In this document: positions 1-33,408 of the stretch, piece by piece
How positions within the stretch are numbered: position 1 is the first letter of the stretch
Layout of the letters: the number at the start of each line of letters is the position of its first letter
NCBI GenBank assembly: GCA_008015855.1
Contig: SSGK01000012.1
Location: 1-34,952 of the forward strand
Source of the DNA: Candidatus Altimarinota bacterium
GTDB taxonomy: Bacteria; Patescibacteriota; Gracilibacteria; BD1-5; UBA2023
Reading direction: 5' to 3'
DNA length: 34,952 nt
Position numbers and translations under genes: made by a program
Notes under the pieces: generated by a model
Told to the model about the DNA's origin: nothing
The model's database searches: none
The model's input: only the letters and a program-made list of their open reading frames with translations

Positions 1-2085
1 AATTCAATGAGTGGTCTCTGTATTAATAATATGTGTCTTGCTGACTGGACTGATTTGAATAATGTTGTAAAAAGTCGATGAACGGCTCATTATCTTGCAA
101 AGTTTGATAGTGGTGGATATATTGGTGACTCTTCTCTTTATGAAACAGGTGCTCAATTATGGATTCAGGATATCAATGAAATTATCAATGATTGGTGAAG
201 TTCACCAGTAAATCGTGGTGCTATTACTATTGCCAACTATTCTGCCTGACCAGCAACAAGTGGAACAAATCCTCTTCTAACCCTTCGCGATAAATCAGAT
301 AATAAAACATGTTGAATTTGGCTTGGCGTTTGAAAAATCCAATCAAACTGTACTTGGGATGGTTGAGCAGCATCTACCACAACGATTCAGAATAATGTTG
401 TAAAATATGATGATACTGTTGGTACCATGACGGGATCGGCACTCTATAGTGTAGGAAATCAGATCTGAATCAACACAGCAACTCCAACCGCAGGATATGC
501 TCTTGATATATCAGGATCCACTCGAGTTACTGGTAATATCGTTGCCTGAGCTGCTAATTCATATGATCTCTGATGATCAGCTATTGCACAAAGATTCCGA
601 AATCTCTACGTAGGAACATGAATGATATATAACACAGGAATCATTGCATCTACTGCATGAACTCGTCTTCTTGTAGGTACATGAAATACAGGATCATGAG
701 CATATAAGGCTGATATATATGGCTGATATGTGAATTCATCATCTGGTTATTGTATTAATGGTAACTGTGTAGCAAGTTGGACTGGAACATCTATGGGGCC
801 ATGGACATTCAATGGAACAACGAGTGTTTATCCAAATCAGACAACTTGGAATGTTGCTCTATGAGCATCCACCGTAACAGCGGGGTATAGGCTCGATATT
901 AATGGAAACACTCGTTCTGTTGGTAATATTATAGCATCCACCAATAATACATATGATTTAGGGTCAACACTCTCATATTGGAATAATATATACGTAAGAA
1001 CAGCAAATATCTCTAGTAGTCTTTGTTTGAATGGAAACTGTATTTCAAATTGGACAGGTATATCAGCGTGACCTTGGTCAATTTCAGGATCAGTTGTTTA
1101 TAATAATACAGGAGCAAGTGTTGCTATAGGGAAAACAACAATCTGATCAGGGGTATATAAATTGGATATTGCGGGAGGATATGCAAATGTTTCAAGTGGT
1201 ATATGTATTAATAATTCATGTTTGAATTCTTGGTCAGCTATCTTAAGTGTACTTCAGGGTTCTGGAAACTATCTTCCAAAGTGGAATGCTGCAGGTACTG
1301 CCATTGTTCCATCTCGTTTAAAAGATGATGGGGTTGATATCTCTATTGCCACAGGGTCTCTTCAATATGTAAGTATTACTCCTGCAAACAGTAGTCAATA
1401 TAGTCAAGTATTGGTTTCAAGTGGGTGAATACTTAAGCAGTGACTTACTTCTCGAGAAAAGCTTCGCATATTTGCATATTCTAATTATTGACCAAATAAT
1501 GATAATTCGACTCGTCAAAGATTATGTCTCGATACATCATCGGATACTACAAATTGTCGTCCTGGATGAGTTTCTGCTATAACAAATGTACCAAATTTTA
1601 ATATCATTGATACAAAGTCTTATACTGGTTGAATAGGTGAATATATTCCTTCAAATGGTACAAGACCAGGATACTTTATATCATACTTTACATGAACATA
1701 TTTAGTGGTTACTAGTTATACATTTACTTCAAATTCAATGACTACTGCAGATCTTGGATGTAATGTTTTTCCATATTATAGCTTATATAACAATGTTGGG
1801 TCACTTCCAAATCTTGCTCGTTTTGATGCAACCATGCCAGATGCGCATTTTACGATTGATTCCTCTAGTGTTATTAGTAATGTAGTGTCTTCTACTAATC
1901 TTCCAATTCCTACACAGAAAACCACCCGTGTTTGATCTCAATTTACATCAAATGTATTTATGACTCCTGGACAAGTGCTTTTGATGACTATATGAGTTCA
2001 GTCTTGTGCTTCTCGTGCAGATAGGGATATGTCACTAGTAATTAATCTTCAAAAGAAAATGACATTAAGTGTTGCTGAGTTGTAA
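1..2085 (+). CDS. 3' part of a gene whose 5' end lies outside the window (694 codons + TAA). Repeat-rich, Cys-loop, fibre-like secreted or surface protein of unknown function. Read with UGA=Gly.
   Basis: Phase 1 is open from the window edge to TAA 2083-2085 once TGA is sense. Every standard-code break I checked is TGA (e.g. 79-81, 196-198, 1426-1428, 1933-1935). There are four copies of C-[IL]-N-[NG]-x-C-[LVI]-x-x-W-[TS] (19-51, 751-783, 1024-1056, 1204-1236). These are interleaved with recurring G-Y-x-L-D-I-x-G..G-N-I-[IV]-A..Y-D-L-G..W/F-x-N-[IL]-Y-V segments. Composition is rich in G/S/T/N. A strong hairpin follows immediately. Confidence 0.7.
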
Positions 2086-2266: not shown

Positions 2267-2292
2267 ATAGGTGTTCTTTATAACGCGAGGGT

Positions 2293-2320
2293 ATCATATA
2301 AAAAAAATAGAATTTGTCGA
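2293..2320 (-). promoter_or_regulatory. Candidate sigma70-type promoter for tRNA-Lys.
   Basis: The minus strand reads TCGACA (2320-2315), a 16-nt spacer, then TATGAT (2298-2293). This lies about 27 nt upstream of the mature tRNA 5' end. Pattern match only. Confidence 0.3.
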
Positions 2321-2402
2321 ATTTTTTTTCATATTTTCCCTGTTTTTCCCTTTGAAAAAAAGAAAAAACGCGTATTATCACAGTAATGTTTTTTCTATTA
2401 TT

Positions 2403-5400
2403 ATGGTTGAATTTGCTTATTCTCGAATTCAGAAAATACTATCATGAATTCTTATGTTTTTGATAGTATTTACTCAAACCTTTCATGTTGTTTGGTTTCA
2501 ATGAGTATCAGCTTATGCTTCTGACTATCGTGATATAGTTTCGATTTTTGTCGACAAAGAAACGTATGATGAATTTTCTTCTCAAATTCGTTGATATGCT
2601 CGTAATATTCAATCCTACCTATGATCCACACGGGTGGTAATATTTCCAGTTCAAGAAACCATTTCACCCTTTGCTATTGCATCACTTAATGAGAAACTGT
2701 ATTATGAATGAGATGGGGATGGGATTTCTCGCCTGGTTGGAACGATTCTTATTTGAAACATTCCACTTCCTGTGGTTCATAGAGAAGGGAAGACTTTCGT
2801 AAGTGTTTTCCCGTATACCGATTTTACAGATAAGAGCTTTTTATTTAATTCAGAAAAAGGATATTATGAATACTCTAATCAGTATAGGGAAACTTCAGAT
2901 GCTGATATTTGGCATTGAGTTATAAATCCAAATACAGGAAATAAATCAACAGATTCAACCGCATTACAAACCTTTTTTGATAAATCCGAAGACTTTTATG
3001 CTCAATCTGGAAAATACTCTGATGCAAATACCCTCGATGATCCTTATGTATTCTATTATGATGGATACCACGAACAGCTTGCTACCAAATTGAATGGATG
3101 GAAGTCGTATGAGCTTTACATGAAGCATCAAGAGGATATTTCATATAAACGTTGGAATAAAGATCTTGCCAATCAGATTACAAAAGAACAAGGGAATGTT
3201 GGAACAGAGGAAATGTGAGATATGGTTGATGGAATTGTTTCCCAACTTGAACAAACAGCTTCTTGATCTGATCAATTAGAAAGTGCTCTTGAAATTCAAG
3301 ATGCTTTTAATAGTTGAGGTTTGATGGAAAAGCAAGAGAATCAAATGAATAATGTTCCCGACATTAAATCAAAGGAAATTATTCAAAATCTTGCCAAGCC
3401 ATTTCATGAGATTATTAATTCTCAAACCATAGGGACTGAGTTAAAAAATGTGCATAATGCAGGAAGATATACTTCTGGTACAACCGTTCGTGCCGATATA
3501 GTTCCTCTTATGGTGACAAAACAAGATGAGATAATGAATAGAATATTGAAAGATGCAAATGGAGTTTTGGAATCTTTTACTGACAATCTTGTTGTGACAT
3601 GAGGATTATCAAGAAAAATTCCTGTGCTTACTCAGATTCAATTTGATCGTCAAGAATTTACTCATTGGTTGTATGGATATCAGCCAATGGATCCGCCTTT
3701 TGTTGAATTAAAGACTACAGCAAATTATCAGTGAAATAATATTGCAAACTACCAGGGGTATTATATAGGTGCTGATCATACTGGGAGTTACATATATAAA
3801 AATTATTTTTTCTGAAAGGAGGGATCCGATATAGTTAGTACGACCGGGTGTACTATATTGCGATGAAGTTCTCGTCTCGTTGAGGCAAATAGAGCATACA
3901 ATACACTTTTAGCTTTATCTGATGTTACTTTATTGCAAGATGATACCCAAGCACTTGCATGAGTAAATGGTATTCGTGATGCCTGTTTTCAACCAAATTC
4001 AAATGGTGCTGATATACGCACAATGACATATTGGGGATGAAATACTCCTCTTAACATAGATAATGCAAAAACAGCAGAAACGGGTTATATGGAGTTATGA
4101 GATCATAGATATGATTCTTTTGTTCGTCCGATTCTTGATATTGCCTGAATGCGTCAGGTTGATTCAGGATCATCGCTCATGGATACATATCATAACTCAC
4201 CAGCACGTTGTCTTGCTCACGATGATCTTATTTTACAACCAAGGACAAAACAGATATGTAATAATTGGTTTTGGGATTCGTGATGTACTCCACCATATTG
4301 ATCAGTAGCTGATAGTTCTTGGGATGAATGGAATAAATGAAGTTCATTTAATAAAAGACTTGCAATTAATGCGGATGATCTAAGATTTTCATGTTCCTCA
4401 ACGGTTAATAAAAAGACATCAAATTCATTTGAAGAATACTACCAGACTATCCCAACAGCAACCTGTACTGTTGGGAATTTGAGGCTTGATAATAGTCTCG
4501 TGCTTTCCGGTTCAAATCCATGTATTCAATATATATACTCGGGTTCTGAAAATGGAGGGTATCAAATTATATCAACCTTTGATCCTGTTACAAAGAAGCC
4601 TATAACACCAATGGATCCACTTCTTTGAATTTTTTATGATTACTATAGGATAGATGATTCACGATATTTAAATATTGATTACAAGTCAATCCAGTCGGCA
4701 ATGTTTCATAAGTCCCCAACGGATGAAGAATTATCAGTAGCTGAAGCTACTCAAATGACACCATGACTTGCTATTGATCGCGATAGGTATGTTTCATTTA
4801 TTAGTGCTGCTTGAAATGAGCAGAAAATAGTATATCCAAACCTTTTTCGTATTGAATTGACTGACGAAGAAATTGTGGATATCGAAAAGGCAAGACTAGC
4901 AATCAAGAAGTTCTTAGATATATCAAGCACTGAGGTAAATGCCTTGATTGCAAGTGAGATTCCTCCAACCTCAGGCATTGCAAAAGATATCTATAATCTT
5001 TTTAAAAATGGCGCATATCCAACACAGAATATTGATTATTATGCTGTTCTTGAAAAAGATCCACAAGTTCTAAAAACTGTTATTCAAAACGTTATTTGGA
5101 ATAATTTGAAAAATGCGACTGCAAAGTACTCATTCATCTTTGAGCATTATATTGATGAAAAAGGGAAGGATAAAACGCTCTTGCCACTTCATAGAACGGA
5201 TTATGAAATAAGCTATATGGGATGACTTGGGAACGCTCAATGAATGAGAGTTCTCCTTGATCCAGAATGAACGGAAGAAGTAATTCCGCCATATATTGCC
5301 GATATTATGAAGGCATATGATACTGGAATTAATGCAATTGATGCTGCAAATGTTACAGAAGATACCTATAATGATAATGGAAATAAAACAGATGACCAAT

Positions 5401-8400
5401 GTGGGTCGCCTGATGGAGTAAATATTTTCTTTGAATGGTTTCCGGCTATTATATGTTGGATTCAAACACTCCTTCCTCCTAAAATTCTTGCCGGATCTTG
5501 TACACCATCTACGATTGGTCAAGATTCAAATAATGATACTACGAATCGTGTAACTCCTCCTACCATTACAGGTACATGATATCAATGAACTCTCGCTGAT
5601 TTTTTCAATGGTGGTAGTATGAAAGTAGTATTTGATAAGAATACTATTAATACAAATGATACCGTTACTATAACATCATTTTTTGAAACATCTTCTGGTT
5701 CCATCGTTGATTTTGATAATACGTATGATGTTGTTGGAACTATTACGAAGATTGAAGCGTATAAGGAAGATGGTTCTTTCGGTGTGGTATATCAGAGCGG
5801 CATGGATCAATCTATTCTCCGAAAATATGTCAGCACCGAATCGGTACTAACTTCTTGATTTACCAATGGAGAAGCTCAATTTTATATTGGAAGTCGATCA
5901 GAGGATGCAAATATCACATTTCAAACAGCAGTAAGAAGATATGATCCTGAGTGAAATCCTCTCCTTGATGTTACCAGTAGTCCAACAATATTTAAGATTC
6001 GAGCTGGTAATATTAATGTAACGGTTCAGAGTGGATCTGAAGTCGTTTCAAGTGTTCCAGTTCAATCGAATCCAAATCTTTCACTCGTTTTTGATGCAAT
6101 ATCTGCGAGCGGAGCAAGAAAAGAATCAGTATTTCCTTATACATATTCATTTATTGATGATGTTTCAGAAGAAATTATAGCAACAGGAACCGTAAGTGAA
6201 GATATTGTTCCATTTCCAACATCCATCTTTTCTCGTATTGGTGTTTATAAAATTGAGGTACAAGATGGTCGTTGAGTCTACGGTGTTTCTAGTTTTTCAG
6301 TGAATCCTTGAGAACTTCATGAGATTCGTGTAGCAGCATCTTCCAATTATCTGGTTCAATGAGAAAATACACCCGTTGTTATTCAACTCATAGATGCGTA
6401 TGGTAATCTTACTTCTGGAGAATTGTATGATCTTGAGATCTCGGTAACCAATGGGTATATAGATGATTGAGAGGGGGAAAGAGATACGGTAACTCGTTCC
6501 ATTTTAGATGGAGCACTTGTTATTAATGTTGGAACAAAAAATTCATGATCAGCAATTGTAAGTGTTCGAGAAAAAAATTCAGGAAAGACATGACAATCGA
6601 GTATACAATCTATTCCATTTGCAAAGTGAAAGATTACTCTCGGGAGTACTCCAATTGCAGGATGAACTGGTGTAACCGTAGCTATTACAGTGGTTGATCA
6701 AAATAATCAAAAAATATCATGATTTAATGGGGTAGCATTATTTGATTTCCCTGGGTCATCTGGGTTATTTTCTGGAAGTACGGTACAGATTATAAATTGA
6801 GAAGCATCTACACGATTCCTTCCTGGAACAGTGGCTTCAAGTGGTATACAGCCTCAAGTGCAAATTCCTGGAATTAAAAATATAGAAGTTCCTTCGATTG
6901 TAATTGAACCAAACGATCCAATGTATATTGAGATGCGTACCACTGGAAATGAGGCTTTTGAGGCAAAACAGTGAAATACCTATGAAGTAGTTGCATCATT
7001 ACGAGATAGATATGGAAATAAAGTAATATCTCCAAGAAATAATGCCCAGGTTTCATTCCTTATACCTGATGATTATGCTCGTTATCTCCGATTTGAAAAT
7101 GGGTCAACGGGTCAGGTTGTTCCATTATGAGCAAGCTGAACTGCTCGTGCTACTATTGTTTCGACTGGTATTCCGGGGACTTCCTATATTTTAGGTGAGG
7201 TTACTCCAGGACTTACCTCTGATATACAAGTCACTGATGGTAATGAAACAACCATTATATCGGCACTCTCAAATGCAGTGATTCGATTGCAAACCTATTA
7301 TGTCTTTAATAAAGAGAAGGTTGATAGAATTGATTATAATTCTCTCTATACGGTTCTATTATGAGCTCCCTATTGAGATACAACCATTGAACAATATCTT
7401 GGATGAGAATTGCTTTTTAGTGAATGATCTCGTTGATTGGCAGTTACAACTCTTTCCGATGATCCATATATTCGTGAGACAGTTTGATCATTTCATCCAA
7501 ATGGTGGCTTTAAATGACAACTCAGCACATCTCCTGAAGTTTCCGTAACAGCTCATACAGAGATGACGAATAATGGAATTTCCGTTGTATTCTATGATGA
7601 AACATACAAGGAAAATATTGCAAGAATTACTCCTCGTTTTCTTGGTACACCAAAAATGATTTCATGTGGATTCGCATCTGGAACAATTAAGGATGACTGT
7701 ACTCTTCCAGACGTATCGCATATAGCAATTCATTCACTTGATTCTTCTGTTGTTTCAAATGTAAATGGAAATGTGCTTACACTTTCTCAGAGTGGATCTG
7801 CGGATGTATTCCTTGCTATTGATTCTGGGGGAAGGGTAACGAAACATCCTCTTGTAAATCTTATTCTCGATGAATCTCATGAAACGAATGGTATGTATTT
7901 TCGTATTGAATTTTCATGAACACCAATAGCGGAACTTATTTATTCAACCATATGAGATGGATCTATTTATAGTCCAGATACAGGTGCTACAACCGATGGA
8001 ATTATAGTAGAAGAAACATCTTCTCGCTATACAACAAGGCATGCATTCAATGGGGCAACTACGAAAGATTCAAAGTGAGTTGAGATTTATAAAAAAGTCT
8101 CACCATTTGATAAACCAGAAATTGACGATGTTTTTTCTCGACCAGGTGCTCTTGCATGAGTTGAGCAATTTACCGGAAATGAATGACTTGGATGGAAAGG
8201 AATGAACAAGATGCTCCTCTCATTTACGTCTGGTGATACTACCGGGGAAGCTTCTAAGTTCTTTGCAAGCTATCTTACTATTAACCTCTGAGATCCAGTT
8301 GTTCATATTGATCCAAAGAAGGTTATAAAACACAACCTTGATAGAACCATTGGAAAAACCATTCTTATGGAGACACGATGAGTTATTACTGGATATAAAG

Positions 8401-11400
8401 TTTTTGATGTAAATAATGATGAATGGGAAGATATTGTGGTATTTTATAATGATGGTCATATACAGCTTATCATGAATATGTCATGAAAATGGCGTGATAT
8501 GGGATATATTGCGTATGTTTCTGATGTAAAAGATGGTTTAAAATGAGTATGAGATTTTAGTGGTGATGGATATGAAGATATCGTTGTAACTGATCAGAAA
8601 GGAAAATTGATATTGCTTGATAATCAAGAGGGGCGTTTTACGAGAAAGAGTGTGAGTTATAATGAAAATGGAGTGACACAGACTCTTTCTGGAAGGTTAA
8701 TCCAGTTAGAAGTTTTCAATATGGATAACGACAAAAATGGAGCTCATGATATTGATGATCTTGTTGTTATGACCGAAGAATGACAGATATCGATACTCTA
8801 TTGATGAATAACCGTTTGAACAAAAACATCAAAGGAGTTTACAAGAAAAATAATAGAAGAAAATTTAGGAATATCTCTTGATACTAATGTTCGACACGAT
8901 GGATGAGCTGTTTATTTTAATGAGCTTGTTATTCCTGATTCATTTAAAAACACAAATACAACAACATCTGGAACATGACTTGATACAATAACTGATGGTG
9001 CAATACTCTCCCATGTATATTATGAACGATCAGTAGACTACTATAGTGATGCAAATTTAAGTGACTATTCGTATCTTGCTTCGGATGTAAGTAGTACCGA
9101 TGGATACTGAAATCCAGTTGATATTTGATCAGATGTTGGAAATCTTTTATCATGAATACCTGATTATGCTCGCTGATCCCAATCGGGAGATGGAATGCTT
9201 TCTTCTGTATCAGGGGATTCAAATGAAAACCCTGAAAGCAGAATATATATACGATCTGAATTTTCTGAAAGTGCGAATATTCTTGTTTCAAAACGATTTG
9301 AGCCGACTGGAGATACAAACTCATTGAAATCGGACGATATCGTAAAAATGGTTGTGACTATTGAAAATCAAGGAGCAGTAAATGCAACAAACTTTGAGTA
9401 TCTCGATGATATACCTGATAATTTTATACTCAATCAAGAAAAGCCATATACATTACTCTATAATAATACTGGTTCTGAAATTTGATGAGTTTGAAGTGAT
9501 ATTGCGATTGATGATTCTTATTTTGATGTTGCTGTTCCTATTGGCTCTCTTCCTGCTGGATCAAAGGTAATGCTTACATATTATGTTAATGTCCTTCCTT
9601 TTGTCTTTGGAAAGATGATTGTAGGACTACTTGAGAAGTGAGAAGTAGGAGACGATGTTTGGGGTGATATTGCATTTGATACAAAGAATCGTTCTGAATG
9701 TGATCGTGATATTCTTATGTGGCGATCTATTGCAAATCGTGAATATGAAAAATGATCAAAGAATTTCACGGATGATACCTATTCAACGCTTGCCCCAGAA
9801 ATTCAAGATGAAATGCTTCGAAATTCAACCGATGAGAATGGGAATGGTATTCCTGATTATGTTGATGCTGGAAGAGAAGATCCAAGTACGCTGCTCGAAT
9901 ATCAAAATGATGCAAAAGAGAAATTTGATGAAGTACAGGCTCAAGAAGCAGCAATTAGTACAATATCACCATTATTGACCTATAATCCTAATACTTGAGC
10001 AAGCACTTCGTCACCATCAGGAAGTGATATAGCTCAAATTGAGCAATCTATTGATACTTTGATGCGATGAATATCATGTTGATTTGGATGAGGTGGGTGT
10101 TTAAATATGCCAGTCAATTGGGCTCCGCTTGCTCCTGGAAGTGCACCAAATGTACTTGGGTTTCCAATGGGAGATATGTCAGCTGATACGTGACTTCCTA
10201 TTTTCTCGATGCTTACTGGATTACAAATGACATGTTGATATGTTCCTTGTTGTATACCGGTTGTTTGGCCTGTGTCGCCTTTAGCGTATGTTCCTGGTCC
10301 AACATGTTGAACTCCATCTGCATGATGATATCTTGGAACTTGGTCACCGCAAAACACGCTTCGAATCTTTGTAACACCAACCCTTACTATGTGAGCAGGA
10401 GTTGCCGTTTGTTTCGGTGGTCCTGCGATGCAAGCAAATGTTACAACTCCATTGTGGCCACTCCCTCCAACGGCATGATGTGTTGTAGCTGCTGCATCTC
10501 TTCCATTTTGTAAGGAAGATGGTTCTGACGGGGATGCTGAATGAGTGAGTTGAGTAGGTACTTTTACTGATACATGGAATGCTGGAAGTCAAACAAGCTG
10601 TGATGTAGTCGCAAATCCTGCTACTTCAACGGAGAAACAGGAAGTTATTACTGAAGTGAATGAGTATATTCGTACGGGTAATAAAGATAATCTTCAGAGG
10701 TTATACGTACAAAATAGAAATAATGCCTCTTTCCTTAATCAACTTTCTTCTCGTCCATTGATCTCTATGGGAAATTCATCAAATGGAGATGTTTCCATTG
10801 ATTTAGAGATAGATCCAAAGGCTGCAAATATAGGCGATGTAGTGAAGATTAAAAATATTCGAGTTCCAGCATTTCCAGAATTTATTATGGATTGGGTAAA
10901 TAGGCAAGTAGAGGAGATTATTAATAAGCTTACAATTCTCCCAACTCTTTACATTATACTCCCTGATGTATCGAGAATGTCTCTTGATGGAAATCTTGAT
11001 GGATTTACTGATAAGATGTCCGGATTTATTAGTTGAGCTAAGAATTCTGTAGGTAGTTTTGGGGATAGATTTTCTAATTCTTTGAATGGATCAAATCGAA
11101 AATACAATAGCATAGGATGAACGGCTGTGTGACTCCGTTCTGCATATGAATTCATGAATAAACTCCCATTTATTCGTGTACGTACTGCGAATATTCCAAT
11201 CAATATTCCTTGGATTGATGGAGCTCAACTTGAAAAAGAAATCGCAAAACTTTCATCTCAAATTGATGCGTATAAAAAAGAAATAGATTCTAAAACAAAA
11301 TCTTGGGAATGAATTGGTGCTGATAATCTTCGTGCTGGAACGAGTAAATTTATCTCGTCTCTTGAAAAAAATCTTCGTACACTTGAGGATTACAAGAAAT

Positions 11401-14400
11401 TTCCAGAAAAACTCCAGAAGCTTCTTACTTGGAAACAACGATATATTGAACAAATTGTATGTAATATTCGAACGATTGAAAAAATGCTTGGCGGATGGTT
11501 GAAAGATAATGCAAAGCGTTTCAAGAAGTGGGTAGAATTCATCATTATTATTAAGTCAATCCTCAAGGGGTGGCAAGCAATTATCGATTTGTTTTCTGGA
11601 TATCAGCAATCATGTGCGGTATGTAAGAATGAACGATATGATCTTCGTACATGGAAGGTTCGACTTCTTTCCATGCTTATACCAAAGATTCCTGTTATTA
11701 AATTTCCTCGATGGCCTGATATTGTCTTAGATTTACATAATATTCGCCTTGGTCTTGATATCGTCATGCCGGAATTTACTATTAAGCCAGTGCCAATTAT
11801 TTTACCGAATTTGCCAAAGCTTTTCCTTCCTGATGCGCCAAATGCGCTCATTAATATTCCAGCTATACCGACGCTTCCAGCCCTTCCAAATCTTCCAAAT
11901 CTTCCGGATCTTCCATCGCTTCCTCGTATTGAGCTTCCAAATCTTCCTCCACCACCAAAGATTCCAAATCTCTTTGGAGGAATAGCAGGAGTTCTCGATA
12001 TATTAAAACTCCTTATCAAGGTAGTGTGTTATATGCAAAATACACCACTTGTTCCAGAATGATATGCTGGTGAGAGAATTGCACAACTTACTCAAAGACA
12101 AGGAAAAAACCCTCTCGACTTCCTCAATCTTGATATGGCATCTATGGCCGATCTTCAGATTCCTGGTATGAAAGAAATACGGGTAAGTACGTATTTAAAC
12201 CTTGAATTAAAGACCGATTTTATTGCAGAGGCTGCTCGACAGATTGTTCGTCCAATTAATGAGTTTGGTGCAGACATGCGATGACTTCTTCCAAAAGAAG
12301 TAGGGACGACTGTTGATATGCGAAACACGGTTCCAAAGAATATTCGCTTGAATTATAATTCAGAAACATTGAAAAAATGAGATGCAACACTCTTTGGAAT
12401 TATTTGAGATAAGGATTTAGGAGAATCAGATATTGAAGAATTCAAGAAGATTTTTATTTCGGAAGTGAACAAGATAGAGAATCCATTTGTAAGAAAGCAA
12501 TTTCTTGATATCTATTCTGAAATGATTCATCCTGAGATGGGAGATGCAAATGAATTCATTGCTTCTCTTGAAAAAGATCAGAAAGAAAGATTCCAGGAAA
12601 TTTATGATTATCTTGATTCCGAACAGAAGGAAGTTCAGAATTTTGAAAATGAATTGAATCGACTTATAAAGAATTATAGTAATTCGGATCTTCTCTCTCG
12701 TTTCTCTCCAAGCACATCAGTACAAATGGCTGAGAGTTCTCAATCGAATAATGCAATAAATCCGTATATCGAGAAGATTAATGCTCGTTCCGAATGAGTA
12801 TTTGATGCTCTTTATCAAGGTAAAAAAGATTCATATGTATCCGCACTGGAAACAGAAGGTACTATATTGAGTAATAAATTACGTTCCATGAGGCTTGCTG
12901 TAAATGATGGAATAAACACTTCTTCTGAATACAATCCAATGAAATCATGAGATACTTCTGTACCAACCTCTGTATATCAAGGAGTGTATGCGATTGATAG
13001 TGGTTGAAATCGAGTATGGCTATTTGATTATTTTGATGAATTAAATGGGGAAGAAGAGATTATACGTGTTGATTATGATAATGATGGAGATAGAGACTAT
13101 CTTTACATGAATGGGAATGGAATATTCTTGAAAGAAAATCATGAATTTACTCCTCATAAAAATCGTGATACGGCTGTTCAAGAGATTTCAAGCATCTCTC
13201 TTGAGGATGAATTACTTTCTCCTGCACCGAATTATTTTCATGAAGCAATTACCACGCCGAATAGTATTAATGTTACGTTTGCCCCTATTCGGAAAGAGCT
13301 TGATGATTACTTCCGATTGGAGTATTACAACAGAATTTATGAATTCGATCTCAATACCTCTATTCCACAAAACTCTTCTTCATGAAGACATGTGGTTGAT
13401 TTAACACCTGTTTTACCACAGAGTGATGGTGATAGAGAGCTCCTTTCTTGAGCAATAGTAATGAAAAATAGGGCATATGTTGATAATATGGTCTGAGATG
13501 TTTTAATATTTGGTCCAAAACTTATTAAAAAATCTTCAAATGATAGCGCATTTGGAGTTTCTGTATGAAGAGATGTATATGTATGAAACTCATCAGCCAC
13601 CATCTCTTATCGCAATAAAAATACTGATACTTGGAATGAAGTTACCCTCCCAAAAAATATACGAATTCGATTCCAATCTGCCATGGAGGTTCGAGTAGAG
13701 TCGGGAATACTTTATATTAACAATGGTATAAATTCAGATACTCCAATGAGTATATATGAATATGAGAAATGATTCCCTATTTTACCGGATATGAAGATTG
13801 TTCCGGCTCCAGGTACGAATGCTCGTGTTGATATTTATGCTAATGGGGTAATGGATAGCGTATTTGGCTGACAGGATTATCGTATGATTAATCTCTGAAC
13901 AAAGAGTTCTTATTATTCGGTTGCATTTGATGAAGAAAATGCATGGTACCATGCTCGAATGTCTACTATTTATCCAGAGGGACGAACATCAAACGTTGCT
14001 CTCACTCTTATGTCTCCTCAATTTGAGTCAGACAATGAGCCTCCATTCTTTGATATGGATAGAACACTCTATGTTCCTGTGTATACCAGTAAAACCTTGG
14101 AACTTCTTGACCTTATTCAGGATACATCTGGCTTATCCGAAATACAAATGGATATTGATGTATCATCGGATGCAAATGGAAATGGAATTGTAGATGATGA
14201 TTTTGTGTCGTTATCTGATCCGAGTCTATCATCCATTCCACTTTCTCTTGTCTCAAATAGTGATTTTGTTGTAAAACTTTGAATCTTTGAAAAATTATGA
14301 ATTCACCAGGTTCGAATCAAAGCAGTCGATAACAATAATAATAGCTCAGAAATGAATGTCTCAATTATTGTTTACGCTCCAATTCCAACTATTGAATGAA

Positions 14401-15071
14401 CAGAGAATAATACGCTCTCTGGTTATCTTGATGAAACCGTTTATGGTGAACCAGTTGATATCGTTCGTGTGAGAGATGGAAATACTTCAATTGTGAAGCC
14501 AGCAACTCCACAAAAATATGATGCTGTTATATCACTTACAGGATGATTCTTTACGGGATCATATAATTCAAATATTCTGACAGCTTCCGGACAGGTTTCT
14601 ATTAAGGATGGAGAAAATGAGGCATGAATTGTTCGGGAGGATACTTGAAAGATTCAAAGCTCTCGTTCAATTGATGTAATTCCTGCGACAGCTGATGCTC
14701 CAATGCAATTAAAAATGGATAATGTGTACTATCAAAATATTATACTGAATCCAAAAACAACCAAGTTCTACTCTACTTCAGATTTTGGAAGAGTTTCTGA
14801 TGAGGGTGTATACATTAAGATGGAAAATCCAGCATACTCATATATTCAAAATCCACTCACTTCACTTCTTTTACCAGGAGGAATAAGTGTTATATCATGA
14901 AATGAATTTATATTTGGAATTGCGACAGATGGAAACATCTATACAAATGCGACAAATATAACATTTGAATACACTTCTTTAGGAAATTATATTATCATCA
15001 AGGCAAAACAAAACACTGATACTATTGCTGAAATTTTCTATAAGATACAAGGTATATTTGTTGCCCGCTAG
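2403..15071 (+). CDS. Giant (4,222 aa) secreted or membrane-associated multi-domain adhesin-like protein. It has an N-terminal signal peptide, tandem Ig-like (Big-type) domains, FG-GAP/integrin-like and TSP3-like Ca-binding motifs, and a CARDB/DUF11-like domain. It also carries a central Cys/Gly/Pro-rich hydrophobic module, a coiled-coil, a CxxC and an LPxLP proline tract. Read with UGA=Gly.
   Basis: I walked phase 3 from ATG 2403 to TAG 15069-15071, codon by codon across every gap between the listed fragments and relying on the track for the fragments themselves. It contains no TAA or TAG, only TGA. All 12 large + strand fragments in the supplied track (3321, 4857, 5619, 7563, 9195, 9813, 10656, 11484, 12465, 13107, 13959, 14703) are in this same phase. 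The N-terminus MVEFAYSRIQKILSGILMFLIVFTQTFHVVWFQGVSAYA/SDY looks like a signal peptide. FG-GAP-like motifs are FDVNNDEWEDIVVFYNDG (8403-), GDFSGDGYEDIVVTDQKGKLILLDN (8550-), MDNDKNGAHDIDDLVVM (8721-) and VDYDNDGDRDYLYMNGNG (13068-). TSP3-like motifs are DENGNGIPDYVD (9831-9866) and DANGNGIVDDD (14169-14201). Confidence 0.85.
11874..11951 (+). repeat. Imperfect 9-bp (3-codon) tandem repeat CTTCCAAAT inside the giant ORF, encoding (L-P-x)n.
   Basis: The units are cttccagcc, cttccaaat, cttccaaat, cttccggat, cttccatcg, cttcctcgt, [attgag], cttccaaat, cttcctcca. They translate as LPALPNLPNLPDLPSLPRIELPNLPP. Confidence 0.8.
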
Positions 15072-20766: not shown

Positions 20767-23700
20767 ATGAAAAAAATATTTCAGTACTTTCTTGTTTTTA
20801 TTTGATTTATATCTGTAATTACATTAGGGGTGTATGCTCTTGATGTTCAGTCAAAGACGCTTACAACCGTTGTATCAGACGGTTATTATAGGGAAGGAAG
20901 CTCTTGGCGTTTTATAGTTTCTGAACCAAGACCATTTCTTGGGATTATTCCAGTTCAGGTAACAAAGAATTGTACTGATTTAAAGGATGTTGCATGTGCA
21001 TTACTCGATATTGATGCTATTCAAAAGAGTATAAAAATCAATTGACTTATTCAGAAGGAGCTCCCTAAGGGGATATCTGCTTCCCTTACGAATACCTATA
21101 CATTTATTTTGAATATTTTCCCTGAAGCAAATATTCGTGATGGTGATGAAATTCATGTAGATGTTGGAATTTATAACTCTCTTCAGAAAACAGGATACAA
21201 ATTAGCCCAAGATATAATTCTTGTGTACCGTAAAAATGATCCGATTCTTACAATTGATTCCATTTGAATACCGAAAAACAAAGAATATAGAGTAGTTGCT
21301 GAAGGTTTTCGTTCAACCAATATCCTTACAACGATAGATTTTTACACTCTACAAAGAAATGACCTTGGCCAGTGTAGTTTGGAATCTTCCAGGGATTTTC
21401 AGAATGCTTCTTTTGAAGTAACCGAGGCATTAAATGAAGGAATGAAATCAACTGCATACATTAAGATTCAATCACCAATTCAATATAATGCAGAATGTCT
21501 ATTTGCTTCAATAAATGGTGAAATGGCATTGGTGGAGAATATGACGATACCCGAGTTTACTGTATCTTGAGAGGTGTGAGTTCAGCTCTCCCCAGAACTT
21601 GATATGAAAACAGAGGTGACATTTTCATTCTCATCCCCCTTATTTATCGAGAGTGGTTCGGTAAATTCAGAAGAATTTATTGATAATCGAACGAAGGCAA
21701 AAGTTGAATTTTTGAAGCATCTTTCAATTTCTTCTTGAATTGAAGCAAAGATAGATGATTTGGTATTATATCCTAAGAAGGCAATACTTCTTTTACCACT
21801 TTTAGCTGATAAAAAATATTCATTTTCTCTTGATGAATTGGAAGATATATATGGTCAGATTACTTCTCTGGATTTTCCTGTGCAAGTAAAAAGAGAACCG
21901 TATCTTTCTGTAAAGACAAAAGAGCGATATCATACCTTCTCAAAACTGCAAAATCCTGAGTTCCAATTATATTCTTACTGAATAGGAACAGGATCTCAGG
22001 AGATTTCTGTTTGTCGAGTTTCTTTGGATAACTTTTCTCGTTTGGAACAGATATATGATGTTGGGAAGAAGGGTGATTCATGAATACTCTACAGTATTCT
22101 TTCTTCATCTTGATCAGGGGTATATGGTTGTGAAAAAACAATTCTTTCTATTCCAGAAGGAAGTTATTCATATAAATTCACGCTTCAAGATGTTCTAAAA
22201 AAGAAGGAAGTTGGTCAATATGTTCTCTTCTTTAGTAAGATCGAGGATATTACAAAGGCTCAAAACTTTGTAAAACCTATTCTATTCTCCATTTTAGATA
22301 CGAATATTGTCATGAAAGTATCACAAGAAGGTGATTCACTCTTTCTTGTAACGGATATCTATACCTGAAAACCGATGAAGGATCAGGAGATAATGGTATA
22401 TCAAAATATATCTCGTTCCGTTGAGAGAACGTGGAATTCTCAAAAAGGAATGTATGATCTAAAATATATTCCACTTGCGGAAAAAAGATTTTCGACATGA
22501 GTTTATATCTGAAAAACCAATAATGAAGGGTTTCTTCAGGTGAATCTAAAAAATTATATAAAAGATGGTGATCCATATAGTTTAACATTTGAAGATTGGT
22601 GGGGATCTCAAGAAGATGGATCATATCGTTCATTTGTGGCCGTTGTTCGATCTGACTCTCATTTTTGATTTGTAGTAAGTACCTGGAATGATGGAATCGC
22701 TCCTTGGAATTTTTGATTTGATACATCGGACACTCGTTATTATTATGGATCACTCCAGCGTTATAATGCATATATACATACAGATAGAATGCTGTATCTT
22801 CCTGGTGAAGAGGTATACATCCATGGAATATTGCGTGAAAATAATGGAAAATTAGTGGTTCCAAAGAATAAGAATTATACCGTTACGGTTACTGATTCAT
22901 TCTGAAAAACCCTTTCTTCTCAGGCTGTTCAGATAAATGAATTTGGAAGTTTCTCTGTAAAATCTTCATTACCAAAGGAGGCTGATATGGGAACTTATAC
23001 CGTTCAGCTGATTGGTGAAACTCCTGATACTTCTTATATTCCAGGGGGATATACTAACTTTCAGGTGGAAATTTTTAAAAATCCAACATTTCAAATTACG
23101 GTTGATGCTGAGTGAGTTGAACTCGATAATGGGATTATAACTGTTAAGAAAGAGGCAAATAAAGATGTTTCAAATTGGTGGTATGAGTCTGTTTACAATG
23201 GTGCATTTACTCTCAACGCAAAAGTGCTTGCACGATACTATAATGGAGCAATATTAAAGAATGCCAATTTTTCATATAAGATTTTAAGAAAAGAGTATTG
23301 GGGTGATAATTATTGGGCGGAATGTTTCTGGTGATGTTATTACGAATGAAATACAGAATTTTATACCGAATGAGTTTGAAGACTTGATGGGGATGGCTAT
23401 GGAATAATACGAACTCCTGTAGATTTTACTTCGTTTTATGCAGACTATAAATATATTATCGAGGTAACGGTAGTTGATCCACTTACCGGCGAGACTATTA
23501 CGAGCGCCTGAAATCTTATTGTAAAACTTCCCGCTGAAATAAAGGAATACAATCCAGCGAGTATTGCAAATGTTGTTCCTGATAGGAAATTTATTTCAGC
23601 TTGAGATGTATTTCGTGCTTGAATACGATTTAATGATACCCCATGGAAGCTTGGCTATAACAATAAATATGAATATAAGATTGTTGCAAAGCAGTATACA

Positions 23701-26700
23701 AATCGAATCATTCAGGATGTTCGATGAGTTTCTCGTTCTGTTTTAAAAGAAGAGGATACTGTTATTTCTTCTGGTGTTCTTACTTCAACTGGAAGATTAC
23801 TTACCCAATCAGGCATTCTTATTTTTACTGGTAAATATCAAAATTCAGGGGAGTATAATCTGGTTATTCAACCGATTTGATATTCTGGATCTGATGAAAC
23901 AAGAATATCTCGCACAGCCTTTTACGTGTATGGAACCGGAAATGCAAAAAATCCTATTATTGATGATAATAAGATACATGTATTTACCGAAAAGCCAGTA
24001 TATAAGCTCGGAGAAACATGAAAGATTCTTGTTCGACTTCCATTTAATCAAGGGAAGATATTGCTTACAACTGAGAAATGAGGGGTTATTGATAAAAAAT
24101 ATATCGATGTTACATCCAATCTCTTTATTCATGAATTTCAGGTTGATGAATCATATTTCCCAAATGCATACATAAGTGTTGTTGCTTTAGAGACTATTTC
24201 AAATTGAGATTCAAAAACAATTACAAGAAATCCAACCTATAGAGTAGGTTATGCTGAAGTGGTGGTTGATCAATCAGAGAAACTTGGAACTATTGCGATA
24301 TCTCCGGATAAAAATGATTATAAGGTAGGGGAAAATGTTAATATATCTCTTGCTCTCAAGAATAAAAAGTGAGAGGGGATAAAAGGAGAATTTGCTGTTA
24401 TGGTGATTGATGATAGTCTTATCTCTCTTCTTGGTAATATTGACCTTGATATTTTGCCAAAGTTTTATCAAAAAGTTGGACTTTGAATCCATACCGCACT
24501 TTCACTCTTGTGAATGGAAGAGAACTTTTATTTTTCTCGTAAATGAATTGCTGGTGGAAGTGGAGGAAAATGATGAGATTGAATTGTTTCAACGAGAACA
24601 ATCTTTAAAAATACAGCATACTATAATCCATCTGTTATTACTGATGAGAAGTGATATGCAAAAGTAAATTTTACACTTCCAGATAATATAACAAACTACC
24701 GAATTATTGTTATTGCCAATACGAAGGATTCAACTTTTGCAGTTGGCGAAAAGATGATTCATGTTCGTAAGGATATTGTTGCCACAGCACATGCACCGTA
24801 TATTGTGAGAAATGGTGATAGATTTGTTGTATCTGCTTCTATTTTTAATAACACGAAGACCATTCAATCACTTATTGTTGCCTTTGAAGCAAATCCTCTT
24901 GATATACAAGGATCGAATGAGCAGAAAATAACTCTCGAACCTGGAAAGACATTATCAGTAGATTTTCCAGCATCAGTAGATAAAAAATCAAAGGCAGTAA
25001 AACTTTCATATGTCATTCGAGTGAAAAATATGAGCTGAATAACCCTTGATGCCATTGAACAAAAAATTGATTATGTACTTGATCCAATTCTTATAGAGCG
25101 TTATCAGCAAAACATCATTCTTACAGGATCTAAAATCATTCCTATTCCACTTGATAAATCGAATGTAAATGAGAATCAGAGTACATTTTCGCTTCGAATA
25201 AGTCCAACATTTCTCCCTTCCATGGAAGATGTTCTTCAATCACTCAAAATGTACCCATATGGTTGTATAGAACAAACGACTTCTTCAACTTTGCCGAATG
25301 CACTTCTTCTCGCAGTATCGAATCTCATAGATACGACAAAATTTTCACCTGAGGATTTAAGAGCAAATGTGGCAGCATGAGTTAAAAGAATTGCATGAAT
25401 GCAAACAGATATTGGTGGATTTTCATATTGGCCAGGAGATACTGTTACAAACTCTCAAATAACTCCTTATGTAGTAAGAAGTCTTATTGCCATGAGTGAA
25501 TTGTGAGCCGATGTTCCAAGAGAAATAATTGACCGCTCTATGAGTTATTTGGAGTCGAATATTTCTGCATATGCTGATAATAATGAAAAGGCAGAACTTT
25601 TTTGGACACTTGCACGAGCGAAAAATAATAAGGCAAAAGTGGTAGCGGATTCGATTGATTCAAATACACTTACGCTTCATTCCTTGTTAGCTTATACATA
25701 TGGAATGCACTATCTCGATCAACAAAAAATTATAAAATTTGATATTCGTTTGATTGATAGAATCCGTGCAGAATTAAAGAAAACAAAACAAAGTGAGTAT
25801 AATTGGTATTATTGGGATCTTCTTGCTGATAAAGCTCTTTTTGCAAGTCTTCTTATAGATAGAACGGGCTATTTTAATGAGGCAGAAGGGATACTTCGTG
25901 AACTTGCGAAAAATGATTGGGATAGTTACTATTATTCGACACAAACGAAGTATCAGGTGTTCCTCGCGTTTTTTAAACACGCACAGAAGATAAAGCAACT
26001 TCCAACCACTGAGGTAACCGTGAAGTATGGTGCATATCAGTGAGTGCTTACTATTTGAGGAAATAAATTGGTACATTCTCTTGAGGTTCCATTTGCTGAT
26101 ATTGGAAATGAATTAAATTTTTCATTTCGATCACAGTATCCAATATATGCAAATATTACCCATTCTCTTTATCCAGCTGACCCATATGCTATTACCAAGA
26201 AGGATAATGGTGTTAAGATTTCCCGTACTCTCTTCTCGGTTGATGAGGAAGCATGAGTGTTTGTGAGTGGAGAAGGGACATATAATCAAGAAATTCAATA
26301 CCTTCATGTTACCCCTGTAAATGATAAGGTGATTCATAAGTGAAAACTTTATAAAGTGGTTATCGAGGCGAATATTCCAACAAAGAAGGATATGAACTGG
26401 ACAAATTTTGTTCTTGAAGATTTCTTTCCTGGTTGATTCCGACCAATTAATAAGGTATTTCATTCCGCAGATTCTCTTCTTGGTGCGACTTCCAATATGT
26501 TCTATTCTACCCAAAATAAAATAGATAGAATACTCGCACATGCTCCTTGGTGATATGGTGATAGCGTGCACTATGAGTATTATTTCCGTCCAGAGTTTGA
26601 AGGAAATTTTATATGGCCTCCTGCTACTGGTTATTTCATGTATAATCCATCTATTATGTGATTTACAGAGTATGAATCACTGACAGTAAAAAAGAATTAG
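20767..26700 (+). CDS. Bacterial alpha-2-macroglobulin family thioester protein (1,977 aa) with an N-terminal signal or anchor.
   Basis: Phase 1 is open from ATG 20767 to TAG 26698-26700 with TGA as sense. The thioester motif MYPYGCIEQT places CIEQ at 25264-25275. MG-domain signatures seen are STWNDGIAPWNF, HTDRMLYLPGEEVYIHGI, INEFGSFSVKSSLPKEADMGTYTV, FQVEIFKNPTF and TAYYNPSVITDEKGYAKVNFTLPDNITNYRIIVIA. The N-terminus MKKIFQYFLVFIGFISVITLGVYA/LD has no lipobox Cys. Confidence 0.9.
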
Positions 26701-26760: not shown

Positions 26761-27207
26761 ATGAAATGTCCAAAGTGTAAAAATCTTGATACAAAGGTAA
26801 TTGATTCTCGTATGACAGAGGATTGAAAGGCAGTAAGAAGAAGACGAGAATGTGAAAAATGCTGAGCTCGTTTTACAACATTTGAACGACTTGAATTCGT
26901 TTCATTTATGGTTACTAAGTCTTCTGGTGAATCGGAACAATATGATCGGACGAAGGTAGTAAATTCTATGATGAAGGCATTGGTAAAGAGAAAATTCAAT
27001 CCAGATAAGATAGAGCAGATAATAAATACCCTTGAAACTGATTGGGCTCAAAACAAACAAGGGATCACTTCAAAGCGAATTGGACGTGATATTCTGCGAA
27101 AGCTTCGAGACTTGGATGAAGTTGCCTTTCTTCGGTATGCATCAATCTATCATAACCATGAAAATGTAGCAGAATTTATTAAATTTCTTGAGGAAGAATT
27201 GTGATAA
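26761..27207 (+). CDS. nrdR: Transcriptional repressor NrdR (zinc ribbon plus ATP-cone).
   Basis: The protein begins [46 protein letters not shown], followed by an ATP-cone-like C-terminal half. Under code 25 the ORF reads through TGA 27202-27204 to TAA 27205-27207. Confidence 0.93.
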
Positions 27208-28205
27208 AACAATCGTCGGATACATTACATCAAACAATCACTATTATTAATCTCTCTAATACAAAACTTCAGGGTGATTATATTTCATATGAGCTTCTGC
27301 AAACCATTACCCAAACAATTGAAAAATGATGAAAGGTTCTCCTTTTTTTCAATAGAAGAGGGGAATATAGGAGCATCTCATGTCCTGATTGTTCGAACCG
27401 ATTATTATGCCCCTATTGTAATATCCCTCTTTCCTATCATTCATTTCCCTCTAAGAAGTGTATTTGTCACCAGTGTAACTATATAGAGCCCTTTCATCCG
27501 ACGTGTAAAAAGTGTGGATCCAATACAATGATTTTCTCTTGAGTTGGTATTCAGAAAATTGAGGAAATTCTTGTTCGTCATTTTCCATGAAAATCTATTC
27601 TCCGAGTAGATTCAGATGCTCTGATACATGATTCTCAGTTACTAAGCTCTATTGATTCTTCTGATATTATTCTCGGAACAACCCTTGCCACCTCCCTTAT
27701 TCATAAGGATATTCAATTGGTTGCAAGTCTTCTCTTTGAAAGTGAATTCTCTATTCCTGAATATACCATAGAAGAAGATGTTTATATACGCGCAAATTTT
27801 TATATTCGACAAGGGATTCCATTTTTTATTCAAACTTTTATACCATCGCATCCCTTATTGGATATGATACTTAATGGAAACTATAAGGAGTATATGAAGT
27901 ATTTAATGAATGAAAGAAAGAGCTTCTGATATCCTCCATTTTGAAAACTTCTTTATATTTGGGTGAAAGATTCAAAAAAAGAGAAGGTCCAAGATATTAT
28001 TTATAAACTCGCCAACAAGCTCGATATTCTTCAGACTGAACATAACTTCTCTCTCTTCTTTTCGTATGATAAGGATATATGGGATCGATATATGGATGAG
28101 TGGCGACAGAAAATTGTTATTAAATGACCTGATGCTGAAAAAATGCTTACTTTTTTCCACTCAGAAATTATTAAAAATCGAAATGTCTTTCTGGAACGAA
28201 AATAA
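27201..28205 (+). CDS. priA: PriA-like protein comprising only the C-terminal half of PriA: helicase lobe 2 remnant, Cys-rich zinc region and C-terminal domain (334 aa). The N-terminal DNA-binding domains and the Walker A/B lobe are absent.
   Basis: VLLFFNRRGEYRSISCPDCSNRLLCPYCNIPLSYHSFPSKKCICHQCNYIEPFHPTCKKCGS matches the PriA CRR. It continues GVGIQKIEEILVRHFP, RVDSD and IILGTTLA. Phase 3 opens only after TAA 27180-27182 and the first usable start is GTG 27201, which overlaps the nrdR end. The stop is TAA 28203-28205. The helicase motif V/VI positions are degenerate (GTTLATSLIHKD; FYIRQG in place of QVAGRAGR). Confidence 0.75.
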
Positions 28206-32493: not shown

Positions 32494-33408
32494 ATGGAAA
32501 AAAATTCTTCTCTTGAACAAGTTCTTGTTGTTCTTGTGAGTATATCTCTTGTTTTTAATGCTGTCTCGCTTTATTTCCTTACGGGATATTGATTTGGAGA
32601 GAAACTTCAATGATCTGAAACAAATGGTGTTGGTATTAAGCGTGCTGTTATGGATGCAGTTCTTGAATTAGAATATGCAAAAGTTGGTGGAAAAGAGAAT
32701 TTTGAACTTATGCAAAAGGCACAAAAATTTTCATTCCAAGATCAGCTTCCACAAGTAAAGCAGTATATAACTTCTCGTGAAAAGGGTGGGTCAGCTCCAA
32801 CTACTACAACAGAAACAACTTCCAATGAAGTAAAAACCCTTTCTCAGGAAGAAATTGCACTTCTTAAGAAAGATGCAGTGATTGAAGGGGATAAAAATGC
32901 AGAAGTGACCCTTATTGAATATTCAGATATGGAATGTCCATTCTGTATTCGTCAGCATAATGAAGAAAAAGCGATTGAAAATGTTCGAGCAAAGTATGGA
33001 AATAAGGTAAATAGTACATTTAAACACAATCGATGAGTAAATCATCCTGGAACTGAGAAGAAGGCAGTTGCGGTTCTTTGTGCAAAGACCGCTGGAAATG
33101 ATTCTGCATATGTAAAACTCTATAAGAGCATCTATTCAGGTTCTACTCTTCGAAGCGTCGTTGATGTAGCTCAACTTCCAGAACTTGCAAAAACAGCAGG
33201 AGTTGATACAAAAAAGTGGCAAGAATGTTATGATAATAAGGCAACTCTTCCAATATTTGATATGCAAACACAGGAAGCAAACAAGTTTAATCTTGGAGGA
33301 ACTCCTGGAACACTCGTTATCAATAATAAGACTGGAAAATATACAACGATCGAAGGTGCTTATCCAACTTCTCAATTCGAATCAGCAATTGAATCCGTAT
33401 TAAAATAA
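32494..33408 (+). CDS. Membrane-anchored DsbA/BdbD-like thiol:disulfide oxidoreductase (304 aa).
   Basis: The N-terminal TM segment is VLVVLVSISLVFNAVSLYFL and is followed by a Thr-rich linker APTTTTETTS. The thioredoxin-fold motif is VTLIEYSDMECPFCIRQH (CPFC at 32935-32946), and the cis-Pro loop is GGTPGTLVIN. The stop is TAA 33406-33408. Confidence 0.8.

Follow-up and report, generated by a model that had tools for sequence, protein, structure and literature searches.

The window analysed here is a 34,952-nucleotide stretch from Candidatus Altimarinota bacterium of the Gracilibacteria (contig SSGK01000012.1, positions 1 to 34,952), whose forward strand carries a giant gene. An earlier note on this DNA, made from the letters alone, had singled out a Cys/Gly/Pro-rich hydrophobic module in the middle of the encoded protein. 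Our analysis indicates that this module is very likely a genuine, previously undescribed domain, which forms the first part of a ~700-residue core of a lineage-specific giant exported surface protein. The gene and the module are located as follows:

2403..15071, + strand: giant gene carrying the module; 4,222 residues in genetic code 25, with 115 in-frame UGA codons read as Gly and only TAA and TAG as stops
10068..10511, + strand: the module, an uncharged Cys/Gly/Pro-rich domain of residues 2556-2703, delimited by composition and conservation

The module lies in frame with the open reading frame (ORF) 2271-15071, for which ATG 2403 is the likely start codon; all residue numbers of the 4,222-residue protein are counted from it. 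The open frame itself reaches back to 2271, and ATG 2403 precedes a segment that resembles a signal peptide. Under the standard bacterial code, 10068-10511 contains ten in-frame TGA codons and neither TAA nor TAG, and across the window long ORFs appear only with TAA and TAG as the sole stops. Translation with UGA as Gly reproduced exactly the peptide given in the earlier note. When the window gene was aligned codon by codon with 42 orthologues, its UGA columns held GGN 1644 times and TGG 39 times, and those within the module held 260 GGN, 71 TGA and no TGG. Where the window reads RG*ISC*FG*GGC, the close homologues have QGLSCGFGGGSC. Genetic code 25 is supported for the window gene, in that the homologues mostly have Gly at these positions rather than Trp or a stop. 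The UGA-encoded residues G2556, G2560 and G2563 fall within the most conserved motif of the module (10068-10100), where close homologues never vary at G2560 or G2563 and ~90% of the orthologues keep G2556, indicating that the reassigned codon is used freely at strongly constrained sites.

Among its 148 residues the module has nine Cys (6.1%, compared to 0.7% protein-wide), 22 Gly, 21 Pro, four Trp and three charged residues, in agreement with the nine Cys and the many Gly and Pro reported before; ten of the 22 Gly are specified by UGA codons, more than the "several" of that report. The claim that its composition differs sharply from that of its surroundings also held. Residues 2556-2703, exactly the boundaries proposed, form the 148-residue window of lowest charge, with 2.0% charged residues against a mean of 21.2% and 12.2% for the next lowest window elsewhere, and no charge-free run elsewhere in the protein is as long as the three, of 58, 49 and 35 residues, that fall within the module.

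A segment of this kind might be a low-complexity spacer, a mis-framed sequence or a compositional accident, as would fit its sequence entropy (3.73 bits, the 0.7th percentile and thus in the lowest 1% of the windows of the giant protein), its guanine-plus-cytosine (GC) content of 0.45 compared to 0.36 for the gene, and two other frames free of TAA and TAG across it (9992-10513 on the + strand and 9980-10948 on the - strand). Conservation and synonymous turnover refute this explanation, to which we assign a negligible probability. The per-residue comparison of 63 orthologous modules revealed that C2559, C2566, C2670, C2693 and C2703 are invariant, that W2573 and C2635 are conserved in 98% and 89%, respectively, and that conservation reaches at least 80% for 11 of the 21 Pro and for 13 of the 22 Gly, with a median charged fraction of 4.8%; the conservation of Cys, Pro and Trp was the check that the earlier note had proposed for a spacer. 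Identical residues use different codons in 63% of the comparisons and the third codon position is the most variable, which points to selection at the protein level, and the module frame is under purifying selection. No tandem repeat was found in the module, and the alternative open frames were rejected as by-products of its GC-rich Gly, Pro, Ala and Cys codons. The median identity to the window protein is 54% for the module versus 31.5% for the whole protein. In the windowed profile of 43 full-length orthologues, residues 2551-2700 form one of the two top conservation peaks (0.54-0.69, mostly 0.60-0.69), which only one other region matches:

11328..12152, + strand: second conservation peak, residues 2976-3250; conservation 0.60-0.72, aligned in 48 of 48 distant giants and colinear with the module

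When one genome from each species was scanned, 64 loci emerged in metagenome-assembled genomes labelled Gracilibacteria, Peribacteria or Patescibacteria, each with one giant code-25 ORF that matches the module, and the complete ORFs place the module at residues ~2300-2850. Orthologous ORFs of 3,900-4,570 residues were found in 43 genomes. A word-based protein search with the module gave five homologous fragments, and a second one using the module profile gave 17 more matches, mostly fragments. Profile search of 1.84 billion representative proteins retrieved only 142 clusters, which are either proteins of ~3,000-5,600 residues that bear the module between residues 1,850 and 3,400 or short pieces of them, and the scan of viral contigs found no relatives. 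The members share a single ORF of ~4,000-5,600 residues with colinear blocks at ~50-450 (N-terminal), ~1900-2100 and ~2550-3250, the third of which opens with the module. Both the 43 full-length orthologues and 48 distant giants align colinearly with the window protein, and the module plus the following ~550 residues are colinear in all 48 giants compared. The module and the second peak are the universally conserved core of the giant family. As the module is fixed at the same place of one giant-protein family, it is family-restricted and not the mobile module that the earlier note had considered; it occurs in no other protein architecture.

Each matched genome, all from ultrasmall bacteria of the Gracilibacteria-type Patescibacteria, encodes a single copy of the giant protein, whether the lineage reads UGA as Gly or uses the standard code. 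A distant member, P0134 of locus L066, has no in-frame UGA and terminates at a UGA stop, so that the family predates, or spans, the recoding. This standard-code member (L066 10001-26869) has 5,622 residues and SLH domains. Its locus carries pilB-, pilC- and pilin-like genes (L066 5175-8412) ~1.6 kb upstream of the giant, with one AAA-type gene between; such adjacency to type IV pilus genes is absent from the 64 Gracilibacteria loci, except for a pilin-like N-terminus beside the gene in L038. Relatives are named "VCBS repeat-containing protein", "hypothetical protein" or "S-layer homology domain-containing protein" at NCBI, and many database copies, having been predicted under the wrong genetic code, are fragmentary or show Trp where Gly belongs.

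The module carries conserved motifs, C-x(2-6)-C, P-x-N-x-A-x-L-A-P-G, G-x-P-x-F, R-x-[FY]-x-x-P-T-L-T-G-G-x-G-x-A-x-C-x-G and G-x-C...C, and is flanked by predicted helices:

10020..10067, + strand: amphipathic heptad helix before the module; heptad pattern and AlphaFold helix, mapped to window residues 2543-2558
10077..10100, + strand: Cys loop C2559-x6-C2566 (SCGFGGGGC); both Cys 100% conserved in the 63 orthologues, and in the wider family the second invariant and the first 95%
10116..10139, + strand: NWAPLAPG motif (family-wide P-x-N-x-A-x-L-A-P-G); invariant in close homologues, and in the wide family N, A, P and G are either invariant or conserved in at least 90%
10194..10214, + strand: G-x-P-x-F motif, first predicted strand (LPIFSML); G and P conserved, strand in two AlphaFold runs at low confidence
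10359..10427, + strand: predicted β-hairpin LRIFVTPTLTMGAGVAVCFGGPA; invariant R2654, P, T, T and C2670, two strands in both AlphaFold runs
10476..10511, + strand: last predicted strand and closing cysteines, GCVVAAASLPFC (C2693, C2703); both Cys 100% conserved in the 63 orthologues, with strand E163-170 of P0017 mapping there
10599..10601, + strand: C2733, a conserved Cys just past the module; 100% in 63 and in 43 orthologues, making the local Cys count even
11220..11615, + strand: long predicted helical hairpin downstream, residues 2940-3071; helices 418-452 and 454-558 of P0017, block pLDDT (predicted local distance difference test) ~60-85, ending in an invariant SCxxC

In the wide family the R, P and T of the hairpin motif are invariant, and its T, G, C and G are at least 90% conserved. 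In distant members the module is compact, ~110 residues, and its blocks come in the same order: C-x(2-6)-C, [LI]P-x-P-x-N-x-A-x-L-A-P-G, G-x-P-x-F, often WPPSPY, F-R-x-Y-x-S-P-T-L-T-G-G-x-G-x-A-x-C-x-G-P, G-x-C-F-x-x-A-x-P and the closing Cys. Two loops between these blocks accept insertions of up to ~100 residues. Directly after the closing Cys, the compact members have sequences that, as read from the alignment, resemble amphipathic helices. Ahead of the module, hydrophobic residues recur at positions -2, -6, -9, -13 and -16 from the first Cys in the 63 orthologues, forming a heptad pattern. Downstream, the helical hairpin is closed by an invariant SCxxCxNER (residues 3071-3078; 11613-11636, + strand), whose two Cys, C3071 and C3074, are 100% conserved. 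Beyond it, an LPxLP run rich in Pro (residues 3129-3190; 11787-11972, + strand) ends in PPPPKIP and is succeeded by another predicted helix; both the SCxxCxNER motif and the LPxLP run are family-wide.

Structures were predicted by AlphaFold2 for the module (31 sequences, with P0001 as the first row) and for the 700-residue core (20 sequences, with P0017 as the first row), and mapped to the window protein. Helix 4-36 of P0001, ahead of the first Cys, belongs to a block with pLDDT of 75-92. Both runs placed strands on the same three motifs, namely LPIFSML, the hairpin NTLRIFVTP/GAGVAVCF and GCVVAAAS, so that the structure prediction proposed earlier yielded recurrent strands, whereas the confidence within the module is low and no fold was obtained. 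As read from the alignment, one face of the hairpin presents large apolar side chains; to the opposite face the first strand contributes Arg, Tyr, Ser and Thr, and the second strand Gly, Ala and Cys.

The module lies where the repeat-rich N-terminal part gives way to the conserved helical core. This position, together with invariant Asn, Arg and Thr in an otherwise apolar setting, would suit a processing or sorting site that directs autoproteolysis or covalent attachment and separates the adhesin half from the helical half. This idea, raised in the earlier note, has very little probability. An LPxTG-type motif is not conserved: LPPTA at residue 2687 is present in one of the 63 orthologues, and the protein runs on for another 1,500 residues. 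Moreover, no orthologue is split at the module among the 64 loci, no similarity to known autoprocessing domains was detected in Pfam, NCBIfam or PDB, and the module is far larger than a cleavage motif requires.

The features that bear on export and disulfide formation are the following:

2403..2519, + strand: N-terminal segment resembling a signal peptide (MVEFAYSRIQKILSGILMFLIVFTQTFHVVWFQGVSAYA); residues 12-30, with a Kyte-Doolittle hydropathy of 2.03, form the strongest hydrophobic peak of the protein
32494..33408, + strand: DsbA-like thiol:disulfide oxidoreductase; Pfam Thioredoxin_4 (2.2e-13) and DSBA (3.1e-08) above cut-off, a CPFC motif and an N-terminal hydrophobic segment

The N-terminal hydrophobic segment is succeeded by an AxA-like "SAYA", as read from the sequence, and has the look of a Sec signal peptide. 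In the window protein 23 of the 28 Cys are at least 74% conserved. Around the module, conserved Cys including C2733 number eight, or ten in the window protein. Among the 63 orthologues, C2611 and C2616 are both present in 17 and both missing in 46, and the C2615/2617 position and C2635 have similar frequencies. The most likely pairs are predicted to be C2559-C2566, C2611-C2616 and C2617-C2635, with C2670, C2693, C2703 and C2733 paired among themselves; the disulfide-knotted core, one of the options of the earlier note, fits this conserved and co-varying pattern. The DsbA-like gene fits disulfide formation in exported proteins of the organism. With the signal peptide, the Cys pattern, the DsbA-like gene and the SLH wall-binding domains of distant family members taken together, there is good support that the module lies outside the cytoplasm and is probably disulfide-bonded. 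An "ISCGF...C" at residue 1753 was considered as an internal repeat of the module start and rejected, since orthologues share only a C...C loop there. Residues ~40-400 of the giant protein (2520-3600) are highly conserved, with LVGTVLIG-x-x-P-x-P-V, PYVDF and EIWHG; this domain recalls by eye a gingipain-like peptidase (C25), and profile searches gave no Pfam or PDB match.

The earlier note had described three hydrophobic stretches and denied them the pattern of a classical transmembrane helix. Kyte-Doolittle peaks of 1.32-1.54 at residues 2600-2630 and 2653-2671 bear out two of them, whereas the third (2692-2703) is short. A transmembrane or re-entrant helix takes at least ~19 apolar residues at a hydropathy above ~1.6 with no break by Pro or Gly; the module, whose peaks are lower and whose every stretch is interrupted by conserved Pro and Gly, does not form a classical transmembrane helix. 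The proposal that these stretches tether the protein to its own membrane after signal-peptide cleavage, as a re-entrant or multi-pass anchor, draws on the facts that no classical transmembrane helix occurs beyond the N-terminus, that several of the windows next in hydropathy fall in the module, and that neither a sortase motif nor a C-terminal anchor was found in the window protein. It is nevertheless improbable, given the low hydropathy and the Pro/Gly content, as well as predicted elements that are short β-strands rather than helices. In addition, the invariant and co-varying Cys point to disulfides and an oxidising compartment, and the SLH domains of distant members offer an alternative tether.

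Database searches agreed with the earlier note, which had not recognised the module as a named domain. Pfam gave no match in the module with the whole protein, with two relatives or with 31 module sequences at E ≤ 5; NCBIfam gave no match and PHROGs nothing relevant; and PDB profile searches with the module, the 700-residue core and the N-terminal conserved domain returned nothing below E = 0.2. Outside the module, 450 residues upstream, a possible FG-GAP_3 repeat at residues 2051-2110 of the window protein scored 26.5 bits, just under the Pfam gathering cut-off of 26.9, and FG-GAP_3 reached 28.2 bits in the relative P0006.

Three known systems resemble the module in composition or placement, and each comparison is an analogy that fails in at least one defining feature. 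Fungal hydrophobins are small, secreted, nearly uncharged and β-rich proteins with four disulfides in a C-CC-C-C-CC-C pattern. The module is likewise nearly uncharged, β-rich by prediction and, counting C2733, equipped with eight Cys. However, it is embedded in a 4,000-residue protein instead of being a free monomer, and its spacing is C-x6-C...C...C...C...C...C...C, where the sole CC of the window is not conserved; a hydrophobin identity was rejected on this spacing and on the lack of any Pfam match at E ≤ 5 among the 31 members. Class I viral fusion glycoproteins, such as Ebola GP2 and the TM protein of avian sarcoma/leukosis virus, have Cys-flanked apolar internal fusion loops of ~20-45 residues and top interfacial hydrophobicity beside heptad repeats. 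The module is similarly hydrophobic, charge-poor, Gly/Pro-containing, bracketed by Cys and adjacent to a heptad helix, but it is three to five times larger (110-150 residues), ranks only 6th by the Wimley-White scale, shows no match in sequence or fold, and has no viral relatives. The α-pore-forming toxins of the ClyA family bear a hydrophobic β-tongue or head without a disulfide framework. Similar to the module, this is an apolar insert containing a β-hairpin between the long helices of an elongated helical protein; size and context differ, homology is not detectable, and the disulfide framework is missing in ClyA-type heads.

Giant surface proteins of Absconditabacteria and Peribacteria have been proposed to act in host attachment, and very large surface proteins with integrin, DUF11 and fibronectin domains are regarded as likely adhesins; cysteine-rich exported proteins are also mentioned for Peribacteria (PMC8080830, PMC13059738, PMC4736985). 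Those of Vampirococcus lugosii reach ~4,163 residues (PMC8080830). The giants of Vampirococcus lugosii, Strigamonas and Ca. Peribacter riflensis, from Absconditabacteria, Gracilibacteria and Peribacteria, resemble the window protein in lineage, size and inferred export, and appear to share with it integrin/FG-GAP, DUF11 and Ig-type adhesion domains. They are listed as probable adhesins only, and these genome papers (PMC8080830, PMC13059738, PMC4736985) make no mention of the module or of the conserved 700-residue core.

These data suggest an architecture for the giant protein. The upstream Ig-like, FG-GAP and Ca-binding repeats would provide reach and adhesion. The module is predicted to be a small β-rich body, with two variable loops, that caps a heptad helix; in compact family members a second amphipathic helix would follow the module. 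Being nearly free of charge, it may form the hydrophobic head of the helical core. Most likely it is a disulfide-stapled, uncharged, β-rich head on a helical stalk, which would either touch or enter a hydrophobic target or be packed away inside an oligomer. Vampirococcus, Absconditicoccus and Strigamonas, which have been cultured or imaged, live attached to other bacteria and drain them. The near absence of charge, the location next to a heptad helix and the lineage's life as episymbionts or predators lead us to favour a hydrophobic head whose target, which it would touch or enter, is itself hydrophobic, with modest support for the host envelope or membrane during episymbiotic attachment as the most plausible one. 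We advance this functional step tentatively, as having rather less than an even chance, and the account as a whole, with that step included, also stops somewhat short of an even chance.

The main rival is a buried structural or oligomerization core, in which the module would sit, for example, at the oligomer interface of the adjacent coiled-coil helices and hold the giant together with no membrane contact. Heptad helices do flank the module, and most of its invariant residues are of the fold-determining kind (Pro, Gly, Cys, Asn, Arg and Thr). Moreover, Cys are conserved all through the protein, as in ordinary extracellular domains, the interfacial hydrophobicity is unexceptional, and the failure of AlphaFold on the monomer is to be expected for an obligate oligomer or a shallow alignment. 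By contrast, having only 2-5% charged residues over a length of 110-150 would be extreme even if the domain were buried, and the large insertions in two loops imply that part of the module must be exposed. We regard this rival as a serious possibility that probably does not hold.

Several observations weigh against the hydrophobic head as a membrane-contacting element. The case for membrane or lipid contact is one of composition and architecture. Wimley-White interfacial hydrophobicity ranks the module windows only 6th, 10th and 11th in the protein, and many of the conserved residues (Pro, Gly, Cys, Asn, Arg and Thr) are those expected of a tightly constrained fold rather than of a lipid-seeking surface. 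The mean pLDDT is 60 in the module run and 51 in the core run, with most of the module below 55, values too uncertain for fold, exposure or oligomeric state, and Foldseek searches of the PDB with both models gave no match at E ≤ 0.001. At 110-150 residues, the module far exceeds the size of known fusion loops. As for the disulfides, the perfect co-occurrence of C2611 and C2616 could reflect the shared ancestry of one clade. A stronger version would make the module the tip by which a giant coiled-coil surface machine of Gracilibacteria/Absconditabacteria penetrates the membrane and breaches or fuses with the host envelope; this is unlikely.

Just upstream of the giant gene lies a tRNA gene:

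2191-2266, - strand: tRNA-Lys(UUU)

The gene order is tRNA-Lys, giant gene, der, TraB-like and ftsH, and the order from the giant gene to ftsH recurs in ~20 loci. The recurring der/TraB-like/ftsH order consists of housekeeping genes and suggests no functional partner. A partial ORF at 1-2085 (+ strand; 694 residues in code 25) has several Cys-loops of the form C-[IL]-N-[GN]-x-C-[LVI]-x-x-W-[ST] in repeated fibre-like units, with no Pfam match and no relative in the 64 related loci. At 20767-26700 (+ strand) a bacterial α-2-macroglobulin of 1,977 residues is encoded, with MG2, A2M, bait region, TED and bMG10 and a CIEQ thioester motif; α-2-macroglobulins in Vampirococcus have been considered a possible defence against host proteases (PMC8080830). 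An ORF at 27183-28205 (+ strand) resembles only the C-terminal Zn-finger half of PriA, by CxxC motifs read by eye, and overlaps the 3' end of an NrdR-like ORF, also by eye; no family search was made for either reading, and the helicase half was not seen upstream.

Altogether, the giant gene takes up ~1% of a genome of ~1 Mb, and the nearly charge-free, Cys-stapled module and the helical block that follows it are its best-conserved parts. The module defines a domain family absent from current databases, of a kind that UGA-recoded genomes conceal, and offers a short, well-defined target for experiments. If it were indeed a penetrating tip, it would represent a new type of bacterial cell-cell pore-former or fusogen, unrelated to known toxins and viral fusion proteins.

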